Below are positions 3,933-46,885 of a DNA stretch of 64,000 nucleotides, piece after piece. The DNA is from Clostridiales bacterium GWF2_38_85 (GTDB taxonomy: Bacteria > Bacillota > Clostridia > Oscillospirales > CAG-382): assembly GCA_001797275.1 (NCBI GenBank), contig MGOY01000006.1, positions 4,744-68,743 on the forward strand. The letters are read 5' to 3'. Position numbers and translations under genes: made by a program. Positions within the stretch are counted from its first letter, which is position 1, and every line of letters begins with the position of its first letter. The notes below the pieces were generated by a model that saw only the letters and a program-made list of their open reading frames with translations, ran no database searches and had not been told where the DNA came from.

Positions 3933-6416
3933 TTATATAAACAGTGTCGTTCCGGCGTTTTCGTTTTGTGAGATATAGGTTGCGACACCGCCGTATTCGA
4001 TGCCATCGATCAGCTCTTCCTGCTTGATGCCCATCAGGTCCATGCTCATGGTGCAGGCTATGAATTTTACGCCGGCAGCCATAGCGTTCCGTATCATGGT
4101 TTCGATATCGTCGACATTTTTCTTCTTCATAATGCCTTTTATCATCTTCGGTCCCATGCCGAGCATATTCATACTGGAAAGCGGCAGCTTCGCTGCTCCT
4201 CTCGGCATCATACCGCCGAACATTTTCTCGATGAAATTCTTTCTAACCTTAACCTTGTTGTTTTTCCGCAATGCATTCAACCCCCAGAAGGTAAAGAACA
4301 GCGTAACCTTTTTCCCGTTTGCCGCCGCTCCCTGAGCGATTATCATTGATGCTATCGCCTTATCCAACGCACCGCTGAACACAACAATGGTTGCGTTCTC
4401 CTGACTCACGGCCGGTACGGCTGTTTCAGACGAGGTACGACCTTTTTCGATTTCAGCAATATAGCTGCCGTTCTCGTTCCTTATTGAATCGAGCTTATGC
4501 CCGTTGATTTTGCACCAGCTTTCAACATCCTTTACAAAACCGAAATCTGTAGCTGTAACCTTAATGATTGAGCCTTCGGCAGCAGCCTTCACTGCCTTGT
4601 AGGTCGCCATCAGCGGTCCCGGACATTGCAATCCTCTTGCGTCAACCTCAGTTATTGATTTTGGAGCAACAACCTGGTTGTCGATATCAACGGTTGCGGC
4701 AGGCTGTGTTGTAACAATGTTCGAAAGCGGTTTATACTTAGCTGTACTATATGTCAGATAACCTCCTGACAGGTTGTATATATTGCTGAATCCAGCCACT
4801 TTAAGCTGCATAATAGCGACATGCGCTCTCAGCCCTGCCTGGCAGGTAACATACATCGGTTTTTCCATCGCCAATGTAATTTCACTCATTCTTGAACGCA
4901 GATCATCGAGCGGTATATTGACAGAGCCATTGATATGTCCTGCTTCAAACTCAAGCTCAGTTCTGACATCCAGTAAATAGCCGCCGTTTTTTACTATATC
5001 GTCAATTTCATTATAATGAACAAATTTATATTCACCGTCAAGCGTATTCGATGCTATATACCCCAGTATATTAACGGGGTCCTTTGCCGATGAATACGGC
5101 GGTGCATAGCAAAGCTCAAGGTCGGGTAATTCTCTGACTGTTCCGTCCAGCCTTATTACAGTTGATATTACATCGATACGCTTTTCAGTGCCATCTCTTC
5201 CGACCGCCTGTGCACCAAGAATCCTGCCATCTTCGGGTGAAAACAGCAGTTTTAGAGCAATGTTTGTTGCACCAGGATAATAGGATGCATGGTTCGCACG
5301 ATGCGCATGGATTGCGAGGTATGGAATTTTTTTCGCTTTTAACTGTGATTCATTGTTGCCTGTCGATGCGATTGTCAGGTCAAACACCTTTGCAACCGCT
5401 GTTCCCAATGACCCGCCATAACTGATCGGTCTGCCGCTGATATGGTCAGCAACCAGTCTGCCCTGTCTGTTTGCAGGCCATGCAAGCGGAATCGCTGTGG
5501 GGCTACCGTCAATACGGTCAACCACCTCGATTGCGTCGCCGATTGCGTATATATCCTCAACAACGCCGCCTGTTTCAGCGTCAAGCGTTTGCAGCTTATC
5601 GTTCGTTTTTATGTGCCCTCTCGGTCCGAGCGCCAGAGCCGCGCTCTTTGCAAGCGTATTTTCAGGAACAACACCGATTGCGAGTATTACAAGGTCGTTT
5701 GCGACAGTCTTTCCACTTTCGAGTACGACCGTTCTGCCGTTGTCTTTAAATTCCGAGATTCCATCACCGAGTATAAGGTCAACACCGTGTGTATTCAGCT
5801 CCTGATGCACAAACTGCGCCATCTCAAAATCAATCGGGCGTAATACCTGCGGCAGCTTTTCAACCAACGTAACCTTAATGCCAAGATCGCAAAGATTCTC
5901 CGCCATCTCAATACCGATGAATCCGCCGCCGATTACAACTGCGGTTCCGGGTTTATTTTCAGCAACAACAGCTTTAATTTTATCTGTATCGGGGATATTT
6001 CTAAGAACCAATACCCTTTCAGCATCCTGAATACCATTTATCGGAGGTTTTATTGGTTTTGCACCGGGCGAAAGAATCAAAACATCAAATGATTCCTCAT
6101 AGGTGTGTTGTTTTTGCTTGTCATAGACAGTAACCGTCTTTTTGTTGCGGTCAACTGCAACAACCTCGGTCAGGTTGCGGATGTCGAGATTGAACCGCTT
6201 TGTCATTCCTTCGACCGTTTGGACAAGCAAGCTGTCTCTTTCCTTAATAACACCGCCGATATAATAAGGAAGTCCGCAGTTTGCGAATGAGATATACTCA
6301 TCCCTCTCGAACATAATAATATTTGCATCTTCGTTGAGTCTTCTTAACCTTGCAGCAGCGGTTGCACCACCGGCAACACCGCCGACAATAACAATCTTTT
6401 TATTCATATATAACAC
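3933..6416 (-). CDS. multidomain CoA-disulfide reductase-like FAD/NAD(P) oxidoreductase fused to rhodanese, TusA-like and DsrE/DsrF-like domains
   Basis: N-terminus IVIVGGVAGGATAAARL (FAD-binding fold); rhodanese segment ...YVTCQAGLRAHVA...; TusA-like CPGP motif (LQCPGPLMATYKA); C-terminal DsrE-like VVFSGALDKAIASMIIAQGAAANGKKVTLFFTFWGL. Confidence 0.8.
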   Translation of the reverse strand: MLYMNKKIVIVGGVAGGATAAARLRRLNEDANIIMFERDEYISFANCGLPYYIGGVIKERDSLLVQTVEGMTKRFNLDIRNLTEVVAVDRNKKTVTVYDKQKQHTYEESFDVLILSPGAKPIKPPINGIQDAERVLVLRNIPDTDKIKAVVAENKPGTAVVIGGGFIGIEMAENLCDLGIKVTLVEKLPQVLRPIDFEMAQFVHQELNTHGVDLILGDGISEFKDNGRTVVLESGKTVANDLVILAIGVVPENTLAKSAALALGPRGHIKTNDKLQTLDAETGGVVEDIYAIGDAIEVVDRIDGSPTAIPLAWPANRQGRLVADHISGRPISYGGSLGTAVAKVFDLTIASTGNNESQLKAKKIPYLAIHAHRANHASYYPGATNIALKLLFSPEDGRILGAQAVGRDGTEKRIDVISTVIRLDGTVRELPDLELCYAPPYSSAKDPVNILGYIASNTLDGEYKFVHYNEIDDIVKNGGYLLDVRTELEFEAGHINGSVNIPLDDLRSRMSEITLAMEKPMYVTCQAGLRAHVAIMQLKVAGFSNIYNLSGGYLTYSTAKYKPLSNIVTTQPAATVDIDNQVVAPKSITEVDARGLQCPGPLMATYKAVKAAAEGSIIKVTATDFGFVKDVESWCKINGHKLDSIRNENGSYIAEIEKGRTSSETAVPAVSQENATIVVFSGALDKAIASMIIAQGAAANGKKVTLFFTFWGLNALRKNNKVKVRKNFIEKMFGGMMPRGAAKLPLSSMNMLGMGPKMIKGIMKKKNVDDIETMIRNAMAAGVKFIACTMSMDLMGIKQEELIDGIEYGGVATYISQNENAGTTLFI

Positions 6417-19714: not shown

Positions 19715-20417
19715 ACGAATTATAAGATATATAATATTATTCGCTGTTATCCCCGCCAGTGTTATCTTAGGTGCGGTTTTTTTCAGCGGCAAGCAGACTG
19801 CATACATATCGTTGGCTGTTACGATTTTTGCGATTGCAGCATTTCTGTTGTCGTTTGAACATAAAAAAAACTCGTCACGTGAGCTGACGGTTATCGCTGT
19901 TATGACAGCTCTGTCGGTTGTAGGACGAATGATATTTGCCTTGCTTCCGGGGTTTAAACCTGTAACCGCAATTGTTGTAATCACTGCAATGTATTTCGGC
20001 GTTGAAGCGGGTTTCCTGACAGGTGCATTGTCGGCTGTAATCTCGAACTTAACCTTCGGTCAAGGTGCATGGACACCTTTCCAGATGCTCTCCTGGGGCA
20101 TAATAGGATTATTAGCCGGATTCCTTTCACCCATTCTTAAGAAAAGTAAAATAATGTTGTCTGTTTATGCCGTTATTTCCGGTATCTTGTTTTCGTTTAT
20201 CATGGATTTCTGGTCGGTTCTTTGGATCGACAATAATATAAACTGGGCAAGGCTCGGTGCTTTTGCAGTCACAGCACTTCCTGTTACAATAGAATATGCT
20301 GTATCGAATGTAATCTTTCTGCTCCTGCTTGCAAAACCAATTGGAAAAAAGCTGGATCGAGTAAAAATAAAATTCGGACTTTTTAAAAAGGAGTTGCCTA
20401 AAATTGAAAAACAATGA
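19707..20417 (+). CDS. ECF transporter substrate-specific (S) component (substrate unknown)
   Basis: 236-aa six-helix membrane protein overlapping the ATPase gene; the T-AA-S order resembles YkoEDC-type modules. Confidence 0.5.
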
Positions 20418-21177
20418 GCTTCAATATCATATAAAATGTAAAGCCGGTGATGTCGGAAGGTATTGTATTTTACCCGGTGATCCCGGTCGTTGTGAGAAAA
20501 TCGCAGCTTATTTTGATAACCCCATTTTTATTGTATCCAACCGTGAATATACTGTGTACACCGGTACCTTGAGCGACGAAAAGGTTTCTGTCTGCTCAAC
20601 GGGCATCGGTGGACCCTCTGCGGCAATTGCTATCGAAGAGCTTACAGCAATCGGAGCCGACACTTTTATACGGGTAGGCACCTGTGGTGGTATAAATATG
20701 AAGGTCAAGGCAGGCGACTGTGTAATCGCAACCGCTTCAACAAGGCAGGATGGCACAAGCAAGGAATATTCACCACTCGAATACCCTGCTGTTTCAGATT
20801 TCGATGTTGCAGCTGTGTTGATTGAAGCAGCAACAAAACTTGCCTATCCATATCACAAGGGTGTAGTACAGAGCAAGGATTCGTTTTACGGACAGCATGA
20901 TCCGCAAAGGATGCCGACTGCTCCCGAGCTGTTATACAAATGGGAAGCATGGAAAAAGCTCGGTGTGCTTGCCAGCGAAATGGAATCATCAACGCTGTTT
21001 GTTGTCGGAGCAACACTCGGAGTAAGATGCGGTGCTATTTTCTACACTGTCTGGAATCAGGAAAGAGTGAATGCCGGTATTGTTGATGAAAATGACGGTG
21101 ACAATTCGAAATCGATAAAAATTGCAATCGAAGCGATGAAAATACTTATAAAAAAAGATAAACTCATAGGAGAATAA
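20404..21177 (+). CDS. udp: uridine phosphorylase
   Basis: Strong resemblance to E. coli Udp: [43 protein letters not shown]. Confidence 0.8.
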
Positions 21178-21179
21178 TT

Positions 21180-23390
21180 TTGCGATCTGTTAATATACTT
21201 TTATTTATTTTAACGCTATCAGTCATTTTACCCGCTTGTGCTTATAATAAAGTACCCACACCATATGAATCGAATATATCCGTTGAAAACAGCAACGAAA
21301 TTTCTGATTTAGAGAGCAATACTGAAATTAATGCTTCTGAAGAAGATAATACTTCAGATGAAAGTATTATTGACGAATCCATAGATGAATCAAGTATTGT
21401 TGATATTACCAGGTTTAATTTACTCAGCCAATTCACAGATTCGCTTGATGAATTTACAAGAGCTCGTATATCGGAGAACTTTATCAATTGGATTTCTGAA
21501 AATTGCGGACCAGAGGTTATTGATGAAATTTTATCAGCTTTAGAAAATAATATTTATGATAAAGAACAATGGTATAAGCTTACTGGGAACACAATAACGG
21601 TTTTATATGACAAGTTCAACGCTACAAATGAAAATATAATTCAAAAACAGGATAATGGCGACGGTATTACATCAATGATTTTCACCGGCGACATATCGCT
21701 GGCTGACAACTGGTATAATATTAAGGACATGGTTGAAAAGAATAAAACTATATCCGATTATATTGACAGTACATACATTAATGAAATGGTCGGTTCAGAT
21801 ATAACGCTTGTAAACAATGAGTTTACGATAAGCGAACAAGGTGAACCGCTTACAGGGAAAAAATATGTTCTTAGAGCCAGTCCTGAGAGGCTGAAAATGT
21901 ACAAAGCACTTGGAGTTGATATAGTATCTCTTGCAAACAATCATGTATATGATTATGGGAAAGCTGCTTTCCTTGATACTTTGAATTATTTGAAATCTGC
22001 CGGTATACCATACATCGGTGCAGGAATAAATTTATCACAAGCAATGCAGCCACAGTATTATATAATCAACGGCAGAAAAATCGCATTTGTCGCAGCTAAC
22101 CGTTCGGAAAAATACATTTACACCCCGGCAGCAACAGATAACAGTCCCGGAGTTCTCAGATGCTATGATACTGCGCTCTTGAAATATGTTATCCAAGAAG
22201 CAAGACAGAACGCAGATTATTTATTTGTATATGTTCACTGGGGAACCGAATTTTCACACAACTTCGATGAGATTCAGCAGGTGCAGGGATATGAATATAT
22301 TGATGCCGGTGCCGATGCTGTTATTGGCTCACATTCGCACTGTCTGCAGGGCGTCGAGTTTTATAAAGGTAAGCCGATTATCTACGGGCTGGGTAATTTC
22401 TGGTTCAGCGGTAACTCAGAAGAGCTTGGTGTATTAAAAATCGTTATTGATGATACAGGGAAAATAAGTTTTCAGATGCTTATCGGCAAAGAAGACAAGT
22501 TCAAAACTGTATATTCAACCGTGACATCAAAAGCTAATCTTCTTGATTTCCTAAAAAATATCTCAAAGAATGTATATATCGATGAAGCCGGAATGCTGAC
22601 ACCGCTTGAAAATCATTATTCATTCTCATCCAATATCACAGACGATTCTATGTTAAATAAACTGCAACAGTTATCCGATTATACAAAACAGTATAGTGGT
22701 ATCAGCATTTATTATAAAAATGCTGATGGTTTATACTACTCCTATAATGCAGATGTTAAATATATAACTGCAAGCACAATCAAAGGTCCGTTTTCACTGT
22801 ATATTTTAATGAAAGCCGATGAAGGTAAAGTTAGTCTTGATACTATGATTGAGTTGAAAGCTTTTCAAATATGGCGGGGCGGCGGAGTAATTAAGAACAG
22901 TCCTGTCGGCACTGAATATTCAATCAGGCAGCTTATTGAATATGCTATAATTGAAAGCGATAATACTGCTTATAAAATGTTGGTTGATTATTTTGGAGTA
23001 ACCGAATTCAATCAGTATGTTACCGAAAAAGGTTTGAGCTTGCAACTTATAGAAGGTAATGGTTACGGTTATTGCACAGCCAGTGAAATGGCTGAGTTAT
23101 ATCTTGATATTTATAATTATAAAGGGAAAAATGCAGATTTCCTTATTGATTGTTTGCTCAAGACAAAATACAGTGTACAAATACAACAAGGTATAACCGA
23201 ATATCCGGTTGCAGAGAAATATGGCTGCCAGGGTGGTATAAAAGGATATCATGATGTAGCTATTGTATATTCACCAACTACCTTTGTACTGTCGATTTTC
23301 ACTTTGATTGATGCTGAAAGTGAAAACAGCGCAGGACCATTTATATATATTTCCGAAGTAATAAATGACATTAATACGGCACTTTCATGA
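21180..23390 (+). CDS. lipoprotein fusing a CapA/PgsA-type (metallophosphatase-fold) domain to a C-terminal class-A beta-lactamase-like serine hydrolase domain
   Basis: Lipobox LPACAY; acidic S/E/D linker; CapA-like IFTGDISLADNW...ANNHVYDYG...VHWGTEFSHN...GSHSHCLQG...GLGNFWF; C-terminal STIK (SxxK), ESDNTA (SDN), EKYGCQG (KTG-like). Confidence 0.6.
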   Translation: MRSVNILLFILTLSVILPACAYNKVPTPYESNISVENSNEISDLESNTEINASEEDNTSDESIIDESIDESSIVDITRFNLLSQFTDSLDEFTRARISENFINWISENCGPEVIDEILSALENNIYDKEQWYKLTGNTITVLYDKFNATNENIIQKQDNGDGITSMIFTGDISLADNWYNIKDMVEKNKTISDYIDSTYINEMVGSDITLVNNEFTISEQGEPLTGKKYVLRASPERLKMYKALGVDIVSLANNHVYDYGKAAFLDTLNYLKSAGIPYIGAGINLSQAMQPQYYIINGRKIAFVAANRSEKYIYTPAATDNSPGVLRCYDTALLKYVIQEARQNADYLFVYVHWGTEFSHNFDEIQQVQGYEYIDAGADAVIGSHSHCLQGVEFYKGKPIIYGLGNFWFSGNSEELGVLKIVIDDTGKISFQMLIGKEDKFKTVYSTVTSKANLLDFLKNISKNVYIDEAGMLTPLENHYSFSSNITDDSMLNKLQQLSDYTKQYSGISIYYKNADGLYYSYNADVKYITASTIKGPFSLYILMKADEGKVSLDTMIELKAFQIWRGGGVIKNSPVGTEYSIRQLIEYAIIESDNTAYKMLVDYFGVTEFNQYVTEKGLSLQLIEGNGYGYCTASEMAELYLDIYNYKGKNADFLIDCLLKTKYSVQIQQGITEYPVAEKYGCQGGIKGYHDVAIVYSPTTFVLSIFTLIDAESENSAGPFIYISEVINDINTALS

Positions 23391-23627
23391 GTGCTGTGTT
23401 TTTTATTTAATATTACCCAAAATATATGCATATATAAATAAAATTTCGCGTATTATTACGAAATTATTTCTATTGATATTTAAAAAAAACAAGCGTATAC
23501 TGTAGCAGGAAACAGGAATATTACTTAAAATAATTGTCTGAAAAACTGATGTTTTTTCAGGCGATTTTTGCGCAATACAATATGCTTCCTTAACACATCT
23601 TTGAGAAAGGATTTTGTGGTATAAACC

Positions 23628-24656
23628 ATGGAAGAACAAACAAAACCTGACCCCTATCCCGGTATAAAAATCGGACTGACCTATAATCTTAAGAAAGAAA
23701 ATCATTCAGGAACTCATGATGAAGAAGCAGAGTATGACAATATCGAAACAATATTCGCACTTAAAAATGCATTTGAAAAAGCAGGTTATCATGTTGAACT
23801 GATGGAAGCCGATGATGACCTCCCCCTAAGACTAAAGAATACAAAGGTTGATATTGTTTTCAACATTGCTGAGGGAAGAGGCGGAAGAGGCAGAGAAGCT
23901 CAGGTTCCCTCATTGCTTAATATGATGGGTATAAAATTCGCAGGCTCCGACGAAACCACTCTTTGTATTGCGCTTGATAAAGCACTTACCAAAAGAGTAT
24001 TATCGACCTATAAGATTAAAACTCCAAAATTCAAAGTAGTATCCGATATCAAAAAAATGGGTAGCTTTAAAGGCTTCCTTTTTCCTGTTATCGTAAAGCC
24101 GAATGCCGAAGGCTCAAGCAAGGGTATTTCGGATGTTTGTATTGCCGAAGATATTACCTCTTTGAAAAATCTCCTTACAGATAACATTACGAGCTACAAA
24201 CAATCTATGCTTGTCGAAGAATACATCGACGGCCGCGAATTCACAGTTGGCATTCTAGGCAACGGAAGAGATACAAAGGTCTTCCGCCCGATGGAGATTG
24301 TTTATCTTGATCAAAACCGTAATTACAGTGTTTACAGCTTCAATGTGAAACAAAATTATAAAAAACTGATTCGTTATGACTGCCCCGCAGCATTAGATCA
24401 ACAGATTGAAGATAAAATGATTAAAACAGCAAGAAAAATCTATGATACGCTTGAATGCAAGGATTTTTCACGCATGGACTTCAGACTGTCAAACGATAAT
24501 GAAATTTATTTCATAGAAATAAATCCGCTGCCCGGGCTTGCACCCGGCTACAGCGATTATCCCATGCTTGCCGATTTCAACGGCACCGATTATGACACAC
24601 TTGTTCAAAGCATAATATACTGTGCTTTGAAACGTTATAATATTCGGAAGGGATGA
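23628..24656 (+). CDS. D-Ala-D-Ala-ligase-like ATP-grasp enzyme
   Basis: VIVKPNAEGSSKGIS and EEYIDGREFTVGILGN match Ddl-family ATP-grasp motifs. Confidence 0.7.
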   Translation: MEEQTKPDPYPGIKIGLTYNLKKENHSGTHDEEAEYDNIETIFALKNAFEKAGYHVELMEADDDLPLRLKNTKVDIVFNIAEGRGGRGREAQVPSLLNMMGIKFAGSDETTLCIALDKALTKRVLSTYKIKTPKFKVVSDIKKMGSFKGFLFPVIVKPNAEGSSKGISDVCIAEDITSLKNLLTDNITSYKQSMLVEEYIDGREFTVGILGNGRDTKVFRPMEIVYLDQNRNYSVYSFNVKQNYKKLIRYDCPAALDQQIEDKMIKTARKIYDTLECKDFSRMDFRLSNDNEIYFIEINPLPGLAPGYSDYPMLADFNGTDYDTLVQSIIYCALKRYNIRKG

Positions 24657-25795
24657 GTGAATTGAACACTGAGGTTTCACAACTTATCAATTCCAACGAG
24701 AGACCTTCATACTGGTATGACTGGAAATGGCAATATAAGAACAGAATTACAACAGTTGAAGAGCTTCGGAGAATAATCACTCTTTCAGAAAAAGAAAAAA
24801 GTGATATAGAATTTTGCCTTACCAACTTTAGGATGGCAATAACCCCTTATTATGCATCTTTGATGCAAAAAGACAACGTAAATTGCCCTATTAGGATGCA
24901 GGCCGTACCGACAATAAACGAAACTGTCAAGCTTGATTGCGAAATGGCTGATCCGCTCAACGAAGAAGGAGAAAGCCCGGTTCCGAATATTGTGCATCGT
25001 TATCCCGACAGAGTCTTGTTCCTCGTAACTCACAGATGCTCAATGTACTGCAGACATTGTACAAGACGTCGCGTTGTAGGCGAAGAAGACAATATCATAA
25101 CCGAAGCGGAGATAAAAACCGCTGTTGATTATATTTCTCAAAATACGAAGATACGTGATGTTCTGATTTCAGGCGGCGACCCGTTTGTTATGAGCGACGA
25201 AAGACTCGAGAGAATTATCTCTGCACTTCGTGCAATTGAACACGTTGAAATAATAAGAATCGGTACCCGAGTTCCGGTTGTAATGCCAATGAGAGTTACT
25301 GAAGGTCTCGTTAACATGCTGAGAAAGTATCATCCTATCTGGATAAATACTCATTTTAACCATCCGAGTGAGCTTACCCCAGATGCAATAGCTGCCTGCG
25401 CCAGAATAGTTGATGCAGGCATCCCTCTCGGTAACCAGAGTGTTTTGTTGCGTGGTATAAACGACAATGTTGATACAATGAAAACACTACTGCTCAAGTT
25501 GGTTAAATCCAGAGTCAGACCGTATTATCTGTATCAATGTGATCTGAGCCAGGGGCTCGGACATTTCCGCACAAGAGTTGAAAAAGGTGTTGAAATTATA
25601 CAAGCACTGACTGGCAATATATCAGGTTATGCTGTACCGAAATTTGTTATAGATGCACCCGGCGGTGGCGGCAAAATTCCTGTTAATCCCGAATATATCA
25701 TATCCGGAGATAATAAGAAATACATTCTCCGCAACTATAAAGGTGATATTTACAAATATCCGCAGCCGCCTGATCTTGCAGACGAATACAAATAA
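24653..25795 (+). CDS. KamA-family (lysine-2,3-aminomutase-like) radical SAM protein
   Basis: HRYPDRVLFLVTHRCSMYCRHCTRRR (CxxxCxxC radical SAM, KamA signature context); ATGA start/stop overlap with the upstream ATP-grasp gene. Confidence 0.75.
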   Translation: MSELNTEVSQLINSNERPSYWYDWKWQYKNRITTVEELRRIITLSEKEKSDIEFCLTNFRMAITPYYASLMQKDNVNCPIRMQAVPTINETVKLDCEMADPLNEEGESPVPNIVHRYPDRVLFLVTHRCSMYCRHCTRRRVVGEEDNIITEAEIKTAVDYISQNTKIRDVLISGGDPFVMSDERLERIISALRAIEHVEIIRIGTRVPVVMPMRVTEGLVNMLRKYHPIWINTHFNHPSELTPDAIAACARIVDAGIPLGNQSVLLRGINDNVDTMKTLLLKLVKSRVRPYYLYQCDLSQGLGHFRTRVEKGVEIIQALTGNISGYAVPKFVIDAPGGGGKIPVNPEYIISGDNKKYILRNYKGDIYKYPQPPDLADEYK

Positions 25796-25891: not shown

Positions 25892-27241
25892 TTAGCGAGC
25901 TTTTTTAACTACAACTGCAAGACCGAATAAGCTTATAACTGCGATAACAGCAACAACAGCTATACCATCGCCTGTAGGAATTGTTGAACTTTCAGATTCT
26001 GTCGTAGATTCAACAGGTTCAACATATTCGCCCTTAAGGGTTACAACAGGAGTCTTTGACCAGTCGTTCGAACCAAAGATACCGCCGCCGTCACGAAGAC
26101 GAACAACTCTCTGTTTTGTATCGTATGTGTTTATAGTGAAGGAAACGCCGATTATATTATTATCAGCAACACTGAGTTCGTAACCTTCAATTGCGAAATT
26201 AGCTATAGGAAGTTTTACTTCATATACAGTTTTGCCTGCATCATCATCACGAGTAGCTTTGCCTTCCCATGTGCCGGATGCATTAATCCAGTTAGTTTGT
26301 TTTGTAACGCCGTCATCATTTACGCCAAGACCGATTTGGTACATATAAGTTGTTGCACCGGCGCCATCGAGCCAGTTAAGAGCATGATCAAGGTTTTCCA
26401 TTGTGTTGGGGTTGATTGTAGAGATGTTAATCTGTACGCAGTCAACTGCCCACATTCCGCTGTCTGCTGTAGCAACAGGATAATAGTGATTTTCTGATGA
26501 TATATCCCAGCCGAGATAGATATATTCATCATCATATGTAGCATAGAAATAACCGGTTGCATACTGGTCATTAGCCTCGAACCATCTGTAATCGCAGAAC
26601 TGGCTTTCGCCGTTGATTTCCATTATAGCATCGCCATATTCGCTAGCGCCAATGATACCATCAAGTGTAGGAGCGGAGGTTGTCTTATAGAAATCCCATT
26701 GAATACTTGCAACAGGAAGTCCTTGGACAGCAACAGCATCACCAACTGCATATAAAGCAATGTTTGTTGCATTACTTACGCTTGTTGTCTGCCAAGCTGC
26801 AGCGATTGTATTATCAGGATCAAGAGCTGCTTCCCATTTGTGAGCAAGAAGAACGAAACCGTCTTCCGGAACTTCGATAGCACTCTTGTCAACACCGTCG
26901 CATGGTAATACTTGAGTAACTTCATATTTATATGAAGTTCTGCTGTACTCAACAACAACGCCAGGCCACCAACCGAATGAGCCTGCGTCACCTACTGTGT
27001 CACAAACATCGCCTGTAAGAATAACACAGTCAGCAAGTCCACCTGCTTTGTTCATCTTGTTAATATAAACTGCCTGAGGTGCTGCGCCGGCAGCAGGATG
27101 ACCATCGTTGCCCTTCATCATATAAGCTGATCCGTCAAGATCAACACCGGCTGTACGATCGAAAGTTTCAGCTGAACCAAGAATCAATGTCATTGAAACC
27201 AATAACATTGCAACGAGAAAAATCGAGATAATTTTTTTCAT
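25892..27241 (-). CDS. secreted/cell-surface protein with an N-terminal signal peptide and a C-terminal TM anchor
   Basis: MKKIISIFLVAMLLVSMTLILGSA signal; C-terminus GIAVVAVIAVISLFGLAVVVKKAR; no catalytic motif recognised. Confidence 0.5.
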   Translation of the reverse strand: MKKIISIFLVAMLLVSMTLILGSAETFDRTAGVDLDGSAYMMKGNDGHPAAGAAPQAVYINKMNKAGGLADCVILTGDVCDTVGDAGSFGWWPGVVVEYSRTSYKYEVTQVLPCDGVDKSAIEVPEDGFVLLAHKWEAALDPDNTIAAAWQTTSVSNATNIALYAVGDAVAVQGLPVASIQWDFYKTTSAPTLDGIIGASEYGDAIMEINGESQFCDYRWFEANDQYATGYFYATYDDEYIYLGWDISSENHYYPVATADSGMWAVDCVQINISTINPNTMENLDHALNWLDGAGATTYMYQIGLGVNDDGVTKQTNWINASGTWEGKATRDDDAGKTVYEVKLPIANFAIEGYELSVADNNIIGVSFTINTYDTKQRVVRLRDGGGIFGSNDWSKTPVVTLKGEYVEPVESTTESESSTIPTGDGIAVVAVIAVISLFGLAVVVKKAR

Positions 27242-40442: not shown

Positions 40443-42392
40443 ATGAGTATTTTCAACAACAAAAAAATCAAGCAATTAGTTGCTTTTTTTATGCTCGCAG
40501 TCATGCTGGTGCCGTTTACGGCATGTGGTGACGGCGACAAAGATAACAGCACTGATTCAACAGGGGAGGCAAGTAATGTGACATCAGAAGCGGAAAGCGC
40601 AAAAGAACTGATTCCGAACGAAAAAGCTGCGGCTGTCTGGGACAGCACATGGGCAGATGAAATAAACGGATTCGCTAATGCATCAACTATATACGGTTTT
40701 GACTTCTACAAAAACCGTCAGCTAAGCAATGACGACGCAAAGGATCTTGCAGAGGATGATTATAAATATATCTTCTTCGGTGAAAACAACTCGCGTGTCG
40801 TTAACCTTACAGACGGTTATGCAATAACCCTACCGACAACAGAATTTACAACAGACTACTCACTCAGCGCACTTCGCAGCCGTTACTACGGTGACAACTT
40901 TGCACTGACAATAACAAAAGAAAATAAAAGTCCTTACGGAAACACTCCCGAAGGATGGAATATATACCTTACTGAATGGGTAATAAGATATATTGACAGT
41001 ATAGACTTCCTTGGCGCAAACAACCTTCGCCGTATACGCAAAAAGCAGGAACTTACAGACATGATTGAAGGCTATACGGTTATCATATATAACATGGAAT
41101 TCCAACTTCCGACCTCATATGAATATCAGAACTACGATATTGCAATTGTCCGCAAGGATGACGAATATGTTGAGTTCTACCTATTCGTTATGAAGTCTAC
41201 AGAAAGACAATACGAAAAACTCGACGAAATACTGAAGTCCTTCACAGAATTGGATGAGGTCGGTGTTGCAAAGAATGATGAAACTCCGTTCGAGTTGAAA
41301 ATACCCGAATACTGGAACGACGAAACAAAAGCATATTTTGATAAGCTTCAAAATCAGACAAATGTAAGCTGGGGTGCGTTCAGTGCATCAATGCCTGATG
41401 ATAAAGACGGCACATATAATATGAGACGCAATCAGATAATAGCCGATCAGGCAAGACTTGAAGCTACATTCGATTACAACTTTGATATTCTCCCAACTTA
41501 TACTGCGTTAAAATGGGGAGATACCTTATTTGACTTTCCAAGCGGACTTGCAAGTGAGCTTGCAGGTGGAAACGGCTTTAACGGAAAACCTGTTCTTCAA
41601 TTCACATATCAATTCACAACACTTAATAATACCAACCTTTATGGCTATAATCCCATGTTCGATATTGCCTGCGGCAAATATGATGAGCAGTTTAATAAAA
41701 TCGCTCAGCAAATAAAAGAATATGACAAACCGGTATTATTCCGTTTGAATAATGAGATGAACTCAGACTGGACCAGCTACGCCGGTATTCTGTCACTGCT
41801 CGATCCCGATGTTTTTGTTTTAACATGGCAGCGTCTTTATGATATCTTCCGCGAAGAGGGTGTTGACAATTGTATATGGATTTTCAACCCGATTGCGAAA
41901 AGCTGCCCGTTTAGTAGCTGGGGTGAATATCTCTGCTATATGCCTGGTGTTGATTATATGCAGCTCCTTGGACTAACAAGCTATGAAATGAACAATAATA
42001 CAAGTGTTGAATCTTTCAAGGATATGTATACCTATGTTTATGAGAAAAATACTCCCTATTTTGAAAACTACTCATGGATAATCAGCGAGTTTGGCTGTGG
42101 CTCCGGCGGTGAAGTATATTATGATTGGGGACAGGGTAAATATTTTGAGAAGCAGCTTGGGCGCAATGAAACACTGCAGGCAAACTGGGTCAAGGAAATG
42201 TTCAAATACTTTAACAACAATCAAACAAATGAAAATGCTTTCTGCAAGAACATTAAAGCTGCAATATGGTTCTCTGTCAACGATTATGTTGATCTTGACG
42301 GTGAAAGCCGTATTGTAAACTTTCTGAAGCTTGATTCTTCACTCACAAAGACACTTGAAGAATTCAGAAAAGGTTTAAACCCCGAAGAATAA
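40443..42392 (+). CDS. secreted lipoprotein glycoside hydrolase, GH26 (mannanase-family)-like
   Basis: Start MSIFNNKK with lipobox PFTACG and RBS aaggag; VLFRLNNEMNSDW (GH26-type acid/base region) and WIISEFG (nucleophile-like). Confidence 0.55.
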   Translation: MSIFNNKKIKQLVAFFMLAVMLVPFTACGDGDKDNSTDSTGEASNVTSEAESAKELIPNEKAAAVWDSTWADEINGFANASTIYGFDFYKNRQLSNDDAKDLAEDDYKYIFFGENNSRVVNLTDGYAITLPTTEFTTDYSLSALRSRYYGDNFALTITKENKSPYGNTPEGWNIYLTEWVIRYIDSIDFLGANNLRRIRKKQELTDMIEGYTVIIYNMEFQLPTSYEYQNYDIAIVRKDDEYVEFYLFVMKSTERQYEKLDEILKSFTELDEVGVAKNDETPFELKIPEYWNDETKAYFDKLQNQTNVSWGAFSASMPDDKDGTYNMRRNQIIADQARLEATFDYNFDILPTYTALKWGDTLFDFPSGLASELAGGNGFNGKPVLQFTYQFTTLNNTNLYGYNPMFDIACGKYDEQFNKIAQQIKEYDKPVLFRLNNEMNSDWTSYAGILSLLDPDVFVLTWQRLYDIFREEGVDNCIWIFNPIAKSCPFSSWGEYLCYMPGVDYMQLLGLTSYEMNNNTSVESFKDMYTYVYEKNTPYFENYSWIISEFGCGSGGEVYYDWGQGKYFEKQLGRNETLQANWVKEMFKYFNNNQTNENAFCKNIKAAIWFSVNDYVDLDGESRIVNFLKLDSSLTKTLEEFRKGLNPEE

Positions 42393-42400
42393 TAAACAAG

Positions 42401-42440
42401 ACCATTTATCTAATATGGATAAATGGTCTCTTGCTTTTAT
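42401..42440 (+). terminator. rho-independent terminator
   Basis: AGACCATTTATCtaatatGGATAAATGGTCTcttgctttta. Confidence 0.65.
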
Positions 42441-42466
42441 ATTAAGTTTAAAAATGAAAAATAGTA

Positions 42467-42757
42467 TTATAATTCGTAATCTACTGCTATGCTGCTTTCT
42501 GCTACTGCATGCATATGCTTCTTAACGACATCAACATGAAATGTGTCGTTCTGATATTCATCAAGCACTTCCCTGCTTTCAAGCGTAACCTGCAGAATTA
42601 AGTCATAGGAACGCTGCGAATGCAGAAAATCTATACCCACAGAAATATCCTTTACTGTCGGTACATTCCCTTGCATTGACATCAGAACATCCTTCGCTTT
42701 CTGACAATTCTCAATGCTGTTATCTTTAAGTTTAAAGCAAACTATATGTTTTATCAT
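42467..42757 (-). CDS. Dabb-family stress-responsive alpha/beta-barrel protein
   Basis: MIKHIVCFKLKD...VGIDF... about 97 aa, typical Dabb pattern. Confidence 0.6.
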   Translation of the reverse strand: MIKHIVCFKLKDNSIENCQKAKDVLMSMQGNVPTVKDISVGIDFLHSQRSYDLILQVTLESREVLDEYQNDTFHVDVVKKHMHAVAESSIAVDYEL

Positions 42758-42920
42758 AATAATTTCCATCCATCTATTATTCCCGATAATTAATAATATC
42801 ACGATTACAAAAAAATAGCAATGAAAAATATATACAGAGACGAAAATTATGTTATTATATTAATATCAGAATATTTTTAAATATAATTACACAAAAGCAT
42901 TATTTTTATAGTCATATATA

Positions 42921-43478
42921 ATGAGAGGGGAGTCATACATCTTGACAAATAAAGAAATAGAGACTTGTGTGCACAATATTTCTATTGGAGATCAAAAAAG
43001 TTTAGAAACTTTATATTATGGATTAAAAGAACCAATTTTTAAATTTGCATTATCAATATTATTTGATTATTATTATGCTGAGGATATACTTCAAGAAACT
43101 TTTTTAACAATAATTAAAAAAGCAAATCAATGCAGATATGAAAATACTAGATCCTGGATTTTTACTATAACAAGAAACTTATGTATGGATGTAATGAAAA
43201 TCAATAAAAATGTTAATGTTGAACCCGATGAAAATTTTGAAAATATTGCTGCAATAAATTCCGATAAATTAGTTACAGATAAACTTATTGTATCCGAAGT
43301 CTTGAATCAATTATCTACTGTTGAAAGACAAATAATAACCCTTTACATATTTGGTGAAATGAAACAGACTGAAATTGCCGAGTGTTTAGATATGCCATAT
43401 CAAAAAATCAGGTCTTTATATAGAAAATCAGTAAAGACAATTAAACAATATTATGAGATACAAAAAATAAATAACTGA
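42921..43478 (+). CDS. ECF-type sigma-70 family sigma factor (true start may be the TTG at about 42942)
   Basis: Region 2 ILQETFLTIIKKANQ...SWIFTITRNLCMD; region 4 ERQIITLYIFGEMKQTEIAECLDMPYQKIRSLYRK. Confidence 0.75.
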   Translation: MRGESYILTNKEIETCVHNISIGDQKSLETLYYGLKEPIFKFALSILFDYYYAEDILQETFLTIIKKANQCRYENTRSWIFTITRNLCMDVMKINKNVNVEPDENFENIAAINSDKLVTDKLIVSEVLNQLSTVERQIITLYIFGEMKQTEIAECLDMPYQKIRSLYRKSVKTIKQYYEIQKINN

Positions 43479-43491
43479 AAGGAAAATCATT

Positions 43492-44604
43492 ATGAGAAAA
43501 AAACAACTGTTTGATTTTTTTAAACAAGAATTTAATGTACCGGTTCCTGATAATTGGGTAAATCTACAAAATATTAAACTTGATAAAAGGAGCAATAGTC
43601 TAAAGTATAAAGCTCCTTCATGGCGTCCAATATCAATTTTTGCGGCATGTTTTTTAATATGTGTAGTATTAATTGTTCCCATTGCTATGAATTTTAATAA
43701 TATTAACCCTCCGATCTCAACCGAAAGTGAAACATTAAGCAGTGATGATACATCAACAACTGATATATCATACAACAATAACACATCAAAAAATAGTGAT
43801 GAATCTATAGTTGATAATACCTCAAGTACAACTACAAGCGAAAATAATGTTTCTATACCTGAACTACCAATCGGAGTAACAGAAATAGACGGTAAATATT
43901 ATCTCAATCTTGAAGGAGGTAATGATATTGATACTTCACAACCATATGGTGATATCGACCAAGCAAATTTAGAATATAATAATTTTGAGACATTTAAAGC
44001 AAAAATGAAATCACTCGATTTCACAGAAGATGAACTACAAATAATACGCAAGAACTTTAAAAAAGATGAATATGGTATTATATTTTGCAATACTGAAAAA
44101 TTTTATGAGCCTATATGGGTACCCGAAGATTATTCTTTACATGGAATCGGATATTTTGGTGGAGAAGGATATACATTTTTATATACTGGAATACAAGAAC
44201 AAACACTATTGATTGAATATACTAATATTGAACGATTTTATAACTCAAAAGATAATATTTTGAAAAACAAAGGAGATTATGAAAGCTTAAAAAATAGTGG
44301 ATTATATAAAAATATACAAGACTCAATAGAAATAGTCGATGGAATTGAGCAACATATATTATCCTATACTTCATTAACCGGTTACGAACGCTTAAAAAAG
44401 AGATGGGATTTCACATTCGATAACATCTCTTATACCATATTTGAAAGTTATTCGCAAGAACAAAATAGTAATGATTTTAACCTTGAATATCCAGAATATT
44501 ATTATATTTTTGCCAATAATGGCAGTAAGTCATTTATTATTAATGGCACAAACATGGGAATAAAGATAACAAAAGAATATGTTTTAAAATTTGGATTGAA
44601 ATAA
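43492..44604 (+). CDS. putative anti-sigma factor (single-pass membrane protein)
   Basis: Follows the ECF sigma gene 13 nt downstream; cytoplasmic N-terminus, TM ISIFAACFLICVVLIVPIAM, then an extracytoplasmic S/T/N-rich domain. Confidence 0.5.
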   Translation: MRKKQLFDFFKQEFNVPVPDNWVNLQNIKLDKRSNSLKYKAPSWRPISIFAACFLICVVLIVPIAMNFNNINPPISTESETLSSDDTSTTDISYNNNTSKNSDESIVDNTSSTTTSENNVSIPELPIGVTEIDGKYYLNLEGGNDIDTSQPYGDIDQANLEYNNFETFKAKMKSLDFTEDELQIIRKNFKKDEYGIIFCNTEKFYEPIWVPEDYSLHGIGYFGGEGYTFLYTGIQEQTLLIEYTNIERFYNSKDNILKNKGDYESLKNSGLYKNIQDSIEIVDGIEQHILSYTSLTGYERLKKRWDFTFDNISYTIFESYSQEQNSNDFNLEYPEYYYIFANNGSKSFIINGTNMGIKITKEYVLKFGLK

Positions 44605-44728
44605 TTTTTAGTAAATATCCACATCATGTTTTATATACTTGTTGTGGATATTTTTTATTATTTTCTATTTATTTGTTGACAATTATATATTTAAAGTATA
44701 TAATTGTTAAAAAGTGAGGTGTATAATA

Positions 44729-46885
44729 ATGTTAAAGAAGTTTTTTCCAATAGTAATTACAATTTTAATTATGTTTTCATGCTTTAATGTATCAGCAATT
44801 AATTATGTCACAGAAAATAATACTATTATTCCTGATGCTATATCATTATATTGTGATAATATCAACACTCATACCAAACGTCTTACTAACGAAGAGACTG
44901 ACTTGAATACCATTGTTTTTCAAAATAGTGATAACACAAATTCAATGTACATTTTTGAACAACCAGTTAAGTATGTTGATGAAAATGGTATAATACAAGA
45001 CAAAAGTACAGAATTAATTGATATTACCAATAAAAACAATGGATATAGATACTCTAATTATAAGAATGATGTGAAGTTATTATTCCCTGATATAATAGAT
45101 AAATCAAAAGGTATAGTATTAGAGTATAATAATATAAAATTAGAATTAATGCCGGTTAGTGATTTACATGGAAATGCAAAAATAAACAGTGTTGACAGAA
45201 AAGATAATAAAAATAATGCTGTGAATTATTCAGATGTATTTTGTGATAATATCTCTTTAAGATATACTGCTACATTTAATGGTGTTAAGGAAGACATAAT
45301 TCTAAATGAATATACTGGTCAAAATATTTTTAATTTTATTATACATACTAATGGTTTAGCTTTATCAGATAAAACAAGCAATATAACAATAAATGATCCA
45401 GTTACAAATGATATTAAAGCTAACTTAGGCGAAATTTTAGTAATTGATAGTAATGGTAAGAATATAATGGGAGAATTATCTTACAAGACTGTCAAAGAAA
45501 ATCAAGAATATTTATTGACAATTATAGTTGACGACAACTATTTAACAGATTCTAACACTACATTTCCTGTATATATTGATCCAAATTTATCTATACCGAC
45601 AGCAGGTGGAATCAGTGCACCTAAAACTATTGTTGATACACCGTTATATTCAAATTGGCCAACATTAGCAGCCGGTGGTAGTTATTATAATAATGTTGGT
45701 AATATGAATAATTCAAATTATGGTTATAGTCGTTCTATAACAAAATTTCCCGCATTGATGAGTAATGTAAGTTTTTTGATGATGCCTTCTGAAATTATAA
45801 ACAGTGTTACATATCAGACACGTGCTATAGTAAAAGGTTCCAATGCTTATGTATATGCATGTTCATACACTGGAAATGCGTGGGATGAAAACACGGTAAC
45901 CAGTGCAAATGGTATGGGATATAGTACAACATGGTCATATGCATATGTCGACGACACTACATCATATAATAATTTTAATATTACATCATGGGCTATTGGA
46001 TGTAAAGCAGGTACTCAAGACCCAGTAAAGGGTATACTTTTAAGAGTAAATCCCACATATGAATCAAATCCGGATTATCTTTTTAGATTTGCATCAACTG
46101 AATACGGTAGTTCCCTTCCTTGGGTTGTTATAAATTATGACAGAACATATACATATAGTTTAGTTAGTAAATATTCCGACAGGTTTGAAGCAGCGTATTC
46201 AAGCGCTAATTCCGGAATATCGGCAGCTCATTCATTTGCTAATACTGTATTTGATGAATATGGAGTAACACTTGTTAATGATAGCATATCTAATCAAGCT
46301 ATGGCCATTGATAATTGCCCGTATGGATATTATAGTAGTTGTACATCAACCTGTGGGACAAATTGTTACGCAAATCATCATCGAAATATATATCGATTAT
46401 CCGATGAAATATATAACGGCACAAGAGAAACAAATCATATTTATACAAGTTGGTATTATATGGGGAGAACTACATTGTGTTCTGGTACCGGTGCAACTCA
46501 TGTATCATATGAAGCTATGGCAAATGTTATCCAAGCTAATGATTCTGCATCAAGAAATATAGTTGATCCCGGAGAGGATTATATTGACTGCCGACCAGTT
46601 ATAGCAGTATATACGCCATCAACTCTTTCAAATGTTGCTTATGATTCAATGAAATTGATACTTGCACATGAATTAGCTCATGTTTTTGGGTTATATGATC
46701 AATACGATGATGATGGCCATGATAATGGAACAACATGGACATGTATAATGAATAACTTTAGTAGTTATTATACAAATAGAGTTGATTTTATTCAAGATAT
46801 TAAAGATGGAAGTGCTCCATTTTGTGCAAGTTGCGATAGTTTATTAGAGAAATACATTATCACGAGATACTTCCTAGCGAATTAA
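44729..46885 (+). CDS. secreted zinc metalloprotease-like protein (HExxHxxGxxD, snapalysin/metzincin-like motif)
   Basis: Signal peptide MLKKFFPIVITILIMFSCFNVSA; C-terminal LILAHELAHVFGLYDQYDDDGHD. Confidence 0.55.
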   Translation: MLKKFFPIVITILIMFSCFNVSAINYVTENNTIIPDAISLYCDNINTHTKRLTNEETDLNTIVFQNSDNTNSMYIFEQPVKYVDENGIIQDKSTELIDITNKNNGYRYSNYKNDVKLLFPDIIDKSKGIVLEYNNIKLELMPVSDLHGNAKINSVDRKDNKNNAVNYSDVFCDNISLRYTATFNGVKEDIILNEYTGQNIFNFIIHTNGLALSDKTSNITINDPVTNDIKANLGEILVIDSNGKNIMGELSYKTVKENQEYLLTIIVDDNYLTDSNTTFPVYIDPNLSIPTAGGISAPKTIVDTPLYSNWPTLAAGGSYYNNVGNMNNSNYGYSRSITKFPALMSNVSFLMMPSEIINSVTYQTRAIVKGSNAYVYACSYTGNAWDENTVTSANGMGYSTTWSYAYVDDTTSYNNFNITSWAIGCKAGTQDPVKGILLRVNPTYESNPDYLFRFASTEYGSSLPWVVINYDRTYTYSLVSKYSDRFEAAYSSANSGISAAHSFANTVFDEYGVTLVNDSISNQAMAIDNCPYGYYSSCTSTCGTNCYANHHRNIYRLSDEIYNGTRETNHIYTSWYYMGRTTLCSGTGATHVSYEAMANVIQANDSASRNIVDPGEDYIDCRPVIAVYTPSTLSNVAYDSMKLILAHELAHVFGLYDQYDDDGHDNGTTWTCIMNNFSSYYTNRVDFIQDIKDGSAPFCASCDSLLEKYIITRYFLAN

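Follow-up and report, generated by a model that had tools for sequence, protein, structure and literature searches.

The 64,000-nt window analysed here (forward strand of contig MGOY01000006.1, Clostridiales bacterium GWF2_38_85) holds, at 21180..23390 (+), a gene for a 736-aa predicted lipoprotein in which a PGA_cap domain of the CapA/PgsA type is followed, within the same polypeptide, by a Beta-lactamase2 domain. The gene begins with a TTG start codon and runs as one uninterrupted frame to a single terminal stop codon; its delimitation draws on the list of open reading frames, Pfam matches, an AlphaFold (AF2) model and collinear orthologs. On its sequence features, the product is an extracytoplasmic lipoprotein with two apparently intact active sites, one resembling that of the peptide epimerase MslH and the other that of a penicillin-binding protein (PBP).

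A signal peptide with the lipobox L-P-A-C occupies 21180..21239 (+) and has the sequence MRSVNILLFILTLSVILPAC, in which MRSVN is followed by ILLFILTLSVI and then by LPAC, ending at Cys20. This lipobox was assigned by rule; the Pro at its -2 position is unusual, and the corresponding stretch of orthologs reads LTSC, ATSC or TTSC. Residues 21-68 (21240..21383, +) form a tether rich in Ser, Asn, Glu and Asp, which is predicted to be disordered from its composition and from the predicted local distance difference test score (pLDDT) of the model. Over aa 23-76, the linker is 30% Asp/Glu with one basic residue, and residues 23-64 have pLDDT values below 50, making it the only disordered part of a model with a mean pLDDT of 91.1 and a predicted template modelling score (pTM) of 0.70. 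Similar low-complexity linkers, of variable length, are found in orthologs. The tether leads into a helical N-terminal subdomain (aa 69-150; 21384..21629, +), modelled as six helices with pLDDT above 90, which matches no Pfam family. This subdomain is shared with the CapA-only relatives of about 450 aa from Clostridia, whose matches begin near aa 90-100, and has no counterpart in the sequence alignment to MslH. The PGA_cap catalytic domain, of the CapA/PgsA/MslH-type calcineurin fold according to Pfam and Foldseek, spans aa 166-409 (21675..22406, +). A beta-rich subdomain (aa 410-478; 22407..22613, +; strands at 414-475 in the model) closes the CapA-like half and continues into the junction, which is modelled at a pLDDT of about 87-96; it lies within the Foldseek alignment of about 450 columns to the 437-aa MslH. 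The remainder (aa 479-736; 22614..23387, +) is assigned by Pfam, Foldseek and motif mapping to a class-A-beta-lactamase-fold domain of the PBP-A type that lacks the omega loop. An earlier sequence-only reading of this DNA had already described a single-gene lipoprotein of 736 aa with an acidic linker, which is borne out, the lipobox being plausible by rule. The motifs that it quoted are all present, i.e., LPACAY (17-22), GDISLADNW (170-178), ANNHVYDYG (252-260), VHWGTEF (352-358), GSHSHCLQG (383-391), GLGNFWF (403-409), STIK (532-535), ESDNTA (592-597) and EKYG (679-682), and the Pfam architecture that it proposed to look for, PGA_cap plus Beta-lactamase2, was recovered far beyond chance.

The C-terminal domain matches Pfam Beta-lactamase2 (PF13354) over aa 509-708 with an E-value of 3e-39 and 135 bits, against a cut-off of 22. 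Its active-site set comprises the nucleophile Ser532, Lys535, Ser593-Asp-Asn595 and Lys680-Tyr-Gly682. For motif mapping, the 161 closest relatives of the domain and the beta-lactamase TEM-1 were placed in an alignment based on a hidden Markov model. In this alignment S532-T-I-K535, kept in 153-157 of the 161 relatives, falls on S70/K73 of TEM-1, and S593-D-N595 on S130-D-N132, while the equivalents of K234 and G236, K680 and G682, are conserved. Position 235 is Tyr in the clade of the target and varies across the subfamily (Y/V/S/F/T). It is also worth noting that five of the 161 relatives carry a Cys in place of the Ser70-equivalent nucleophile, and these may be thiol variants or inactive forms. 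The omega-loop segment with Glu166 and Asn170, in turn, is missing from the target, as it is from 159 of the 161 relatives. At the residue level, the target has a 5-residue gap opposite Leu158 of PBP-A, which corresponds to the Glu166 position, and the sole nearby Glu, Glu625, is E, E, R, P and P among the orthologs.

Structural comparison leads in the same direction. The top Foldseek matches of the C-terminal half are the PBP-A entries 2j9o and 2j7v, with a template modelling (TM) score of 0.85 and a root-mean-square deviation of 2.1 A, above all true class A enzymes. Experiments identified PBP-A as a DD-carboxypeptidase/DD-endopeptidase, which is set apart from beta-lactamases chiefly by the omega-loop Glu (PMC11189452). 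Because the Glu166 omega loop is missing and the best structural match is PBP-A, the C-terminal domain is read as PBP-type and not as a beta-lactamase; sequence and model together give good support for a predicted acyl-serine D,D-peptidase of the penicillin-binding type, devoid of the beta-lactamase deacylation machinery. The PBP-A of Thermosynechococcus elongatus (Tll2115; PDB 2J7V/2J9O) shares with the target A-S-T-I-K, S-D-N-T-A and the lack of a catalytic omega-loop Glu, at 23% identity. However, PBP-A consists of one periplasmic domain and reads H-K-T-G where the target reads E-K-Y-G, and the target also has a still shorter loop and a fused CapA-like enzyme; the preference of PBP-A for amidated iGln is not transferable to the target. 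The best sequence match of this domain in the PDB is 3CJM (E-value of 1.7e-10), a putative beta-lactamase of Enterococcus faecalis (EF, NP_815223.1). It has in common with the target S-T-I-K, S-D-N and K-x-G with a hydrophobic x (K-I-G in 3CJM), followed by an H-D motif; it differs in consisting of a single domain, and no publication was found for this structural-genomics entry.

A true class A beta-lactamase conferring resistance, joined to a CapA-like anchor, is a highly improbable alternative, although it is favoured by the Pfam match, by many weak matches to named families and by the motifs S-x-x-K, S-D-N and K-x-G. The target shares with class A enzymes such as TEM-1, CTX-M and BlaZ the fold (TM score of about 0.8) and the equivalents of S70-x-x-K73, S130-D-N132, K234 and G236, but has no Glu166/Asn170 omega loop, carries Tyr at position 235 and falls below every curated beta-lactamase cut-off. 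The NCBIfam class A beta-lactamase model NF033103 gives 63.7 bits against a cut-off of 200, and the named NCBIfam beta-lactamase families give 16-39 bits against cut-offs of 320-670. Moreover, PBP-A, the closest structure, gives no resistance even when a Glu is engineered into its omega loop (PMC11189452). Hence, of the serine-beta-lactamase domain proposed in the sequence-only reading, the fold and the motifs stand, supported by the Pfam and Foldseek matches, while the beta-lactamase catalyst does not; the third motif that it listed, EKYG, is present as K-Y-G and not as the K-T/S-G of beta-lactamases.

In the N-terminal half, Pfam PGA_cap (PF09587) covers aa 166-409 with an E-value of 1.1e-59 and 202.5 bits (cut-off 27), matching profile positions 2-253 of 255, and the CapA/PgsA metallophosphatase-fold domain expected there is confirmed both by this match and by Foldseek. 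The only solved structure that matches this half is MslH (sequence E-value of 5e-17; Foldseek match to 8gqb with an E-value of 6e-20). MslH epimerises the C-terminal Trp of a lasso-peptide precursor in a Ca(II)-dependent reaction, for which it uses the dyads His88/Asp91 and His295/Asp11 and the Ca ligands Glu44, Asn87, His259 and His261 (PMC10406935). This enzyme, the only biochemically characterised relative within PGA_cap, did not figure in the sequence-only reading, and taking it into account changes the likely chemistry of the N-terminal domain.

Across 154 relatives, little or no variation is seen at D171, E214, N254, H255, D258, H353, E357, H385 and H387. In the phmmer alignment, Glu44, Asn87, His88 and Asp91 of MslH correspond to Glu214, Asn254, His255 and Asp258 of the target, all invariant, and His259 and His295 correspond to His353 and His387, both nearly invariant (1-2 gapped sequences). 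Asp11 cannot be aligned by sequence and probably corresponds to Asp171, as judged from the position of the G-D motif. Both His/Asp dyads of MslH (His255/Asp258 and His387/Asp171, the latter with Asp171 placed by inference) thus appear to be kept. The fourth Ca ligand, His261, is not conserved, its place being taken by Gly355, and His385, nearly invariant in the target family, stands where MslH has Gly293. This means that the metal site differs in part from the one in MslH, with the invariant E357 and H385 as possible stand-ins for the missing Ca ligand, and that a hydrolytic chemistry (phosphoesterase or amidase) keeps some likelihood. Overall, the predicted N-terminal active site is MslH-like though not identical. 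MslH itself (PDB 8GQ9) appears to share both dyads with the target, and three of its four Ca ligands align to invariant target residues, but the identity in the structural alignment is only about 17%, and MslH is a cytoplasmic enzyme encoded in a cluster for a peptide synthesised ribosomally and modified after translation (RiPP), whereas the target, a lipoprotein of the cell surface, carries an additional helical subdomain and lacks RiPP genes in its vicinity.

The fold of this half is that of metallophosphoesterases, and it could instead belong to a hydrolase (metallophosphoesterase or amidase). The fusion would then be a wall remodeller with two hydrolytic activities, directed for example at the teichoic-acid phosphodiester or D-alanyl ester and at a peptide bond. 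The G-S-H-x-H motif (His385, His387) and the Asn-His pair are closer to canonical phosphoesterase motifs than are those of MslH, and enzymes of the PBP fold can act as D-amino esterases on teichoic acids, as does FmtA. In addition, two CapA-like proteins from Clostridia (P0020, P0041) have PGA_cap fused to PF04450, the peptidase-like BSP domain, a second pairing of PGA_cap with a putative peptidase. However, the first phosphoesterase motif has no His (D171-I-S173, with S, C, N or M at position 173 in relatives), so the canonical two-metal site is incomplete, and the only two family members with functional data indicate epimerisation. A hydrolytic N-terminal domain is consequently considered unlikely, and MslH-type epimerisation is the chemistry retained for it below.

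The sequence-only reading had named the joining of two separate genes by a sequencing error as what would undo it. Four further clusters at 90% identity (P0002-P0005) are 49-71% identical to the target and collinear with it across the junction, and one of them, P0003, is represented by four contigs assembled independently from four sequencing runs. Full-length matches to the fusion are also present in three metagenome-assembled genomes (MAGs) of uncultured Clostridia (L001-L003), and one more metagenome contig (L090) carries it in the same order. Nothing was found in favour of a sequencing or assembly artefact, and its probability is next to nil: the frame is unbroken, the same architecture recurs in at least eight independent contigs or MAGs at 49-71% identity, and the junction is confidently modelled. 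The artefact is dismissed because orthologs from independent assemblies keep the fusion, which is genuine, and it can be considered effectively excluded along with the beta-lactamase explanation.

The fusion in this order is nonetheless rare. It was found in five clusters among 5.8 billion proteins, in two representatives among 1.84 billion clusters at 50% identity, in three of the best 80 loci out of 284 relatives confirmed on scanning 185,579 species-representative genomes, and in one of the best 80 loci of the metagenome collection. Other long proteins with a C-terminal beta-lactamase-like domain, including P0233 and P0273, were set aside, as their N-terminal part is fn3, Cu_amine_oxidN1 or a segment with no Pfam match and not PGA_cap.

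In P0247, one of the long relatives of the C-terminal domain, the order of the two domains is reversed, with Beta-lactamase2 at 53-252 and PGA_cap at 433-670. A search with P0247 retrieved 22 Bacillaceae clusters of reverse-order fusions, often with SH3_3 between the domains, from hosts that include Neobacillus sp. D3-1R (P0278), N. mesonae (P0294), Bacillus sp. CGMCC 1.16607 (P0282) and a Robertmurraya. These secreted proteins contain the same two domains and the same conserved catalytic residues, but have a Sec signal peptide and no lipobox, K-V-G in place of K-Y-G, and domain identities to the target of about 31-39%. A third architecture, represented by P0308, consists of a signal peptide, Cu_amine_oxidN1, PGA_cap and then a beta-lactamase-like domain. 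In every fusion type, both domains have preserved their catalytic residues.

The ancestry of the pairing was assessed by similarity ranks, which give the order within the sequences retrieved here and not a full phylogeny. By this measure, the first reverse-order fusion stands at rank 122 for the PGA_cap domain of the target and at rank 74 for its beta-lactamase-like domain, after many single-domain proteins. The reciprocal ranks, from reverse fusion to target type, are 49 and 121. The two domains of P0308 are nearest to Bacillaceae-type proteins, with proteins of the target clade first appearing at ranks 113 and 129. Since single-domain proteins are closer than the other fusion type, independent fusion events are implied, and the sequence comparisons indicate that the two-domain pairing arose independently more than once. 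Gain or loss of the beta-lactamase-like module is also apparent among close orthologs: P0299, which has PGA_cap only and shows about 75% identity, sits at the syntenic position held by the fusion P0278, and P0006, 62% identical to the CapA half of the target, breaks off right at the junction, an unrelated gene coming next. No paper describing a PGA_cap plus beta-lactamase-like fusion was found in the literature on PGA_cap/PF09587 or the "CapA family protein", and the sequence-only reading, too, had not known the combination as a described architecture. It is not, however, unique or absent from databases, as the reverse order occurs in cultured Bacillaceae. Both domains belong to known families, and the sequences, including the reverse-order ones, which NCBI and UniRef label only as "CapA family protein", are already public under that generic name. 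The taxonomic survey thus places the forward fusion, rarely, in Clostridia and metagenomes and the reverse order in Bacillaceae.

The gene contexts of the reverse fusions differ from one another and from those of the forward fusions. One reverse fusion adjoins an SH3-Amidase_3 gene and a gene of the LytR_cpsA_psr (LCP) family. In two Neobacillus-type loci (L085, L170), a CapA-like gene with or without the beta-lactamase-like module lies between a dynamin-like gene and an amino-acid ABC transporter, and a PhzF/Pro-racemase-like isomerase gene is found a few genes downstream. The fusion partners of the beta-lactamase-like subfamily include SH3_3, SbsC_C, Cu_amine_oxidN1, fn3 and Peptidase_C39_2, while those of PGA_cap include SH3_3 and the BSP peptidase-like domain. 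The SH3 wall-binding repeats found in relatives of both modules also occur in amidases, glucosaminidases and M14 carboxypeptidases, and the fusion partners of both modules point to the cell wall.

The fusions of the omega-loop-less beta-lactamase-like subfamily to Peptidase_C39_2, observed in several Neobacillus and Bacillus species (P0168, P0345-P0352), involve a family related to bacteriocin-processing peptidases. They bring in a very unlikely explanation, namely the maturation or degradation of a secreted peptide (RiPP, pheromone or antimicrobial), in which the epimerase would make a C-terminal D-residue and a D-stereospecific serine peptidase would trim or recognise it. The substrate of MslH, the C-terminus of a ribosomal peptide, would fit such a role. 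However, neither the target nor its orthologs have a precursor peptide, a lasso cyclase or any other RiPP gene at their flanks, and no lasso genes were found among the neighbours of the fusion gene (an energy-coupling factor (ECF) transporter, uridine phosphorylase, a Ddl-like ligase and AblA). MslH is moreover cytoplasmic while the target is a surface lipoprotein, and the NCBIfam MslH equivalog model NF038314 gives 74.9 bits against a cut-off of 700.

The capsule polymer poly-gamma-glutamate (PGA) offers another route to a substrate. The CapA/PgsA protein of the Bacillus PgsBCA system belongs to the same Pfam family as the N-terminal half, and both are extracytoplasmic and membrane-anchored. 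In B. subtilis, PgsBC without PgsA makes PGA with a D/L ratio of 5/95, compared with 75/25 when PgsA is present (PMC6029982), and the authors of the MslH work proposed that CapA introduces D-Glu into PGA via peptide epimerisation (PMC8179263). A search for direct proof of PgsA epimerase activity in the literature since 2019 gave reviews only. On this basis, the fusion could process or scavenge PGA or another gamma-glutamyl polymer, the CapA-like domain binding or epimerising Glu and the serine domain cutting the D-Glu-gamma-D-Glu bond. The PGA_cap family is tied to no polymer other than PGA, PgsA influences its stereochemistry, each of its Glu residues bears the free alpha-carboxylate that MslH-type chemistry requires, and the fusion protein is predicted to be extracellular.

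The surroundings of the gene do not bear this out. Neither pgsB (Mur-ligase-like) nor pgsC is among the five genes upstream and the five downstream of the fusion gene, no pgsB/pgsC or known PGA hydrolase gene lies beside the target or the 77 CapA-only relatives, and no recurrent PgsB/PgsC-like neighbour was found in 80 related loci. These CapA-only relatives are abundant in Lachnospiraceae, Oscillospiraceae and human-gut metagenomes, and their neighbours are housekeeping genes with lineage-specific synteny. The target further differs from CapA/PgsA in its lipoprotein anchor and its added serine-peptidase domain, and its identity as a subunit of a PGA synthase was ruled out for want of a flanking pgsB/pgsC-like gene. 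The characterised relative of the serine domain works on peptidoglycan and the SH3_3 partners indicate the wall. The known PGA depolymerases are of other folds (the NlpC/P60 enzyme PgdS, GGT/CapD and the phage enzyme PghP). PGA is therefore held to be an improbable substrate, and the suggestion of it in the sequence-only reading keeps only the rank of a rival, whereas a surface enzyme acting on an amide-linked wall polymer, which falls within the broader suggestion made there of an amide- or ester-linked polymer, is still the best general reading.

The function favoured here, tentatively and at somewhat less than even odds, is that of a membrane-tethered surface enzyme whose two modules act sequentially on the D-amino-acid peptide termini of the wall, i.e., the stem peptides of peptidoglycan. 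The acidic flexible tether would anchor both modules outside the membrane. The C-terminal module would form an acyl-enzyme on Ser532, helped by Lys535, Ser593 and Lys680, and would have no omega-loop Glu with which to hydrolyse a penicilloyl adduct. The N-terminal module would carry out acid/base epimerisation at the C-alpha of an N-acylated residue with a free alpha-carboxylate, as modelled on MslH, which acts on a C-terminal Trp, and on the proposed action of CapA/PgsA on gamma-linked Glu. In such a scheme, the DD-peptidase would expose or recognise the D-terminus, with the residue that has the free alpha-carboxylate as the site of action of the CapA-like domain. That the N-terminal module performs MslH-type acid/base chemistry at a C-alpha beside a free carboxylate can be proposed, by analogy, with moderate confidence; that the shared substrate is the peptidoglycan stem peptide is put forward with lower confidence, and the order of the two reactions is what we infer from the scheme. 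More generally, the recurrent fusion of intact CapA-like and PBP-type sites suggests, by guilt-by-association, that the CapA family handles D-amino-acid peptides outside the cell.

Several observations weigh against the proposed function. In place of the carboxylate-binding Thr/Ser of classical PBPs and beta-lactamases, the target clade has Tyr at position 235 and the reverse fusions have Val, so that the substrate may differ from the canonical D-Ala-D-Ala terminus. The metal site departs from that of MslH at its fourth ligand and at His385, and the equivalence of Asp171 to Asp11 comes from motif position. Gene context lends no support to a role in peptidoglycan, the neighbours being an ECF transporter and uridine phosphorylase here and differing elsewhere. 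A split-gene form was not encountered either: no beta-lactamase-like gene was found within 8 kb of the 77 CapA-only genes, nor beside the PGA_cap-only genes of Bacillaceae. Finally, we know of no precedent for the epimerisation of peptidoglycan after its assembly. A bolder version of the proposal, in which an extracytoplasmic MslH/CapA-type epimerase inverts a stem-peptide residue (the terminal Ala exposed by the DD-peptidase, or iso-Glu) after wall assembly, and in which the orphan CapA lipoproteins would likewise be extracellular peptide epimerases, is accordingly regarded as doubtful.

The function of CapA/PgsA has been unsettled for decades, and its membrane complex is hard to handle (PMC8179263). 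The fusion described here can be regarded as a natural "Rosetta stone" for CapA-like proteins, whose role has long resisted explanation, and the fusions, including those from cultured Neobacillus, supply soluble single-polypeptide proteins with which the epimerase hypothesis could be tested directly. If the stereochemistry of peptidoglycan were indeed edited in this way, the wall would have a new kind of modification, one that would affect recognition by antibiotics and by innate immunity. By extension of the bolder version, the orphan "CapA family" lipoproteins, which number in the thousands in gut and digester Clostridia, would be extracellular peptide epimerases and not capsule-synthesis proteins. 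Independently of this, metagenome surveys should refrain from counting genes of this kind as beta-lactamase resistance genes, since their domain is without the deacylation machinery.

The fusion gene closes a densely packed series, whose preceding members encode a HIT protein, the T component of an ECF transporter, a duplicated ECF ATPase, an S component and uridine phosphorylase. The gene for the last of these (20404..21177, +; TIGR01718, 297 bits against a cut-off of 280) ends 2 nt upstream of the fusion gene. A Shine-Dalgarno-like AGGAG, read from the sequence at 21168..21172 (+), precedes the TTG start by 7 nt, and the uridine phosphorylase stop codon (21175-21177) falls between AGGAG and TTG, which argues for tight coupling of the two genes; they are probably co-transcribed. 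At the other end, a terminator-like hairpin (23373..23400, +) overlaps the stop codon of the fusion gene and is followed by TTTTTATTT; this match to a consensus scan, which is a pattern match only, has a 12-pair stem with four G-C pairs. In one of the MAGs (L001), a uridine phosphorylase ortholog, 69% identical, lies directly upstream of the fusion. This adjacency is not present in the other two MAGs (L002, L003) nor in the P0003 contigs, and where it is shared, with L001, it is regarded as inherited synteny.

The genes of the upstream series, which overlap or abut between 16711 and 21177 (+), encode a HIT-family protein, a CbiQ-type ECF T component, a fused double ECF ATPase, an S component of the riboflavin-transporter type and uridine phosphorylase. 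No functional reason is apparent for the uridine phosphorylase gene to stand beside the fusion gene. Past the terminator of the fusion gene, at 23628-25795 (+), a D-Ala-D-Ala-ligase-like ATP-grasp gene overlaps a lysine 2,3-aminomutase gene by 4 nt, indicating translational coupling. The ligase-like gene reaches 189 bits, under the Ddl cut-off of 243, while the aminomutase (AblA) passes TIGR03820 with 554 bits against 525. This pair, which may make a beta-lysine-containing amide, forms a separate unit and is not kept beside the fusion in other lineages. Further downstream, at 25892-27241 (-), lies a gene for a 449-aa protein with no Pfam match. Its signal peptide, its acidic stretch rich in Ser, Thr and Glu, and its C-terminal hydrophobic anchor give it the look of an uncharacterised surface protein. 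Across the window, whose G+C content is about 38%, local values reach 47% at 4001-6000 and fall to 27-30% at 42001-46000.

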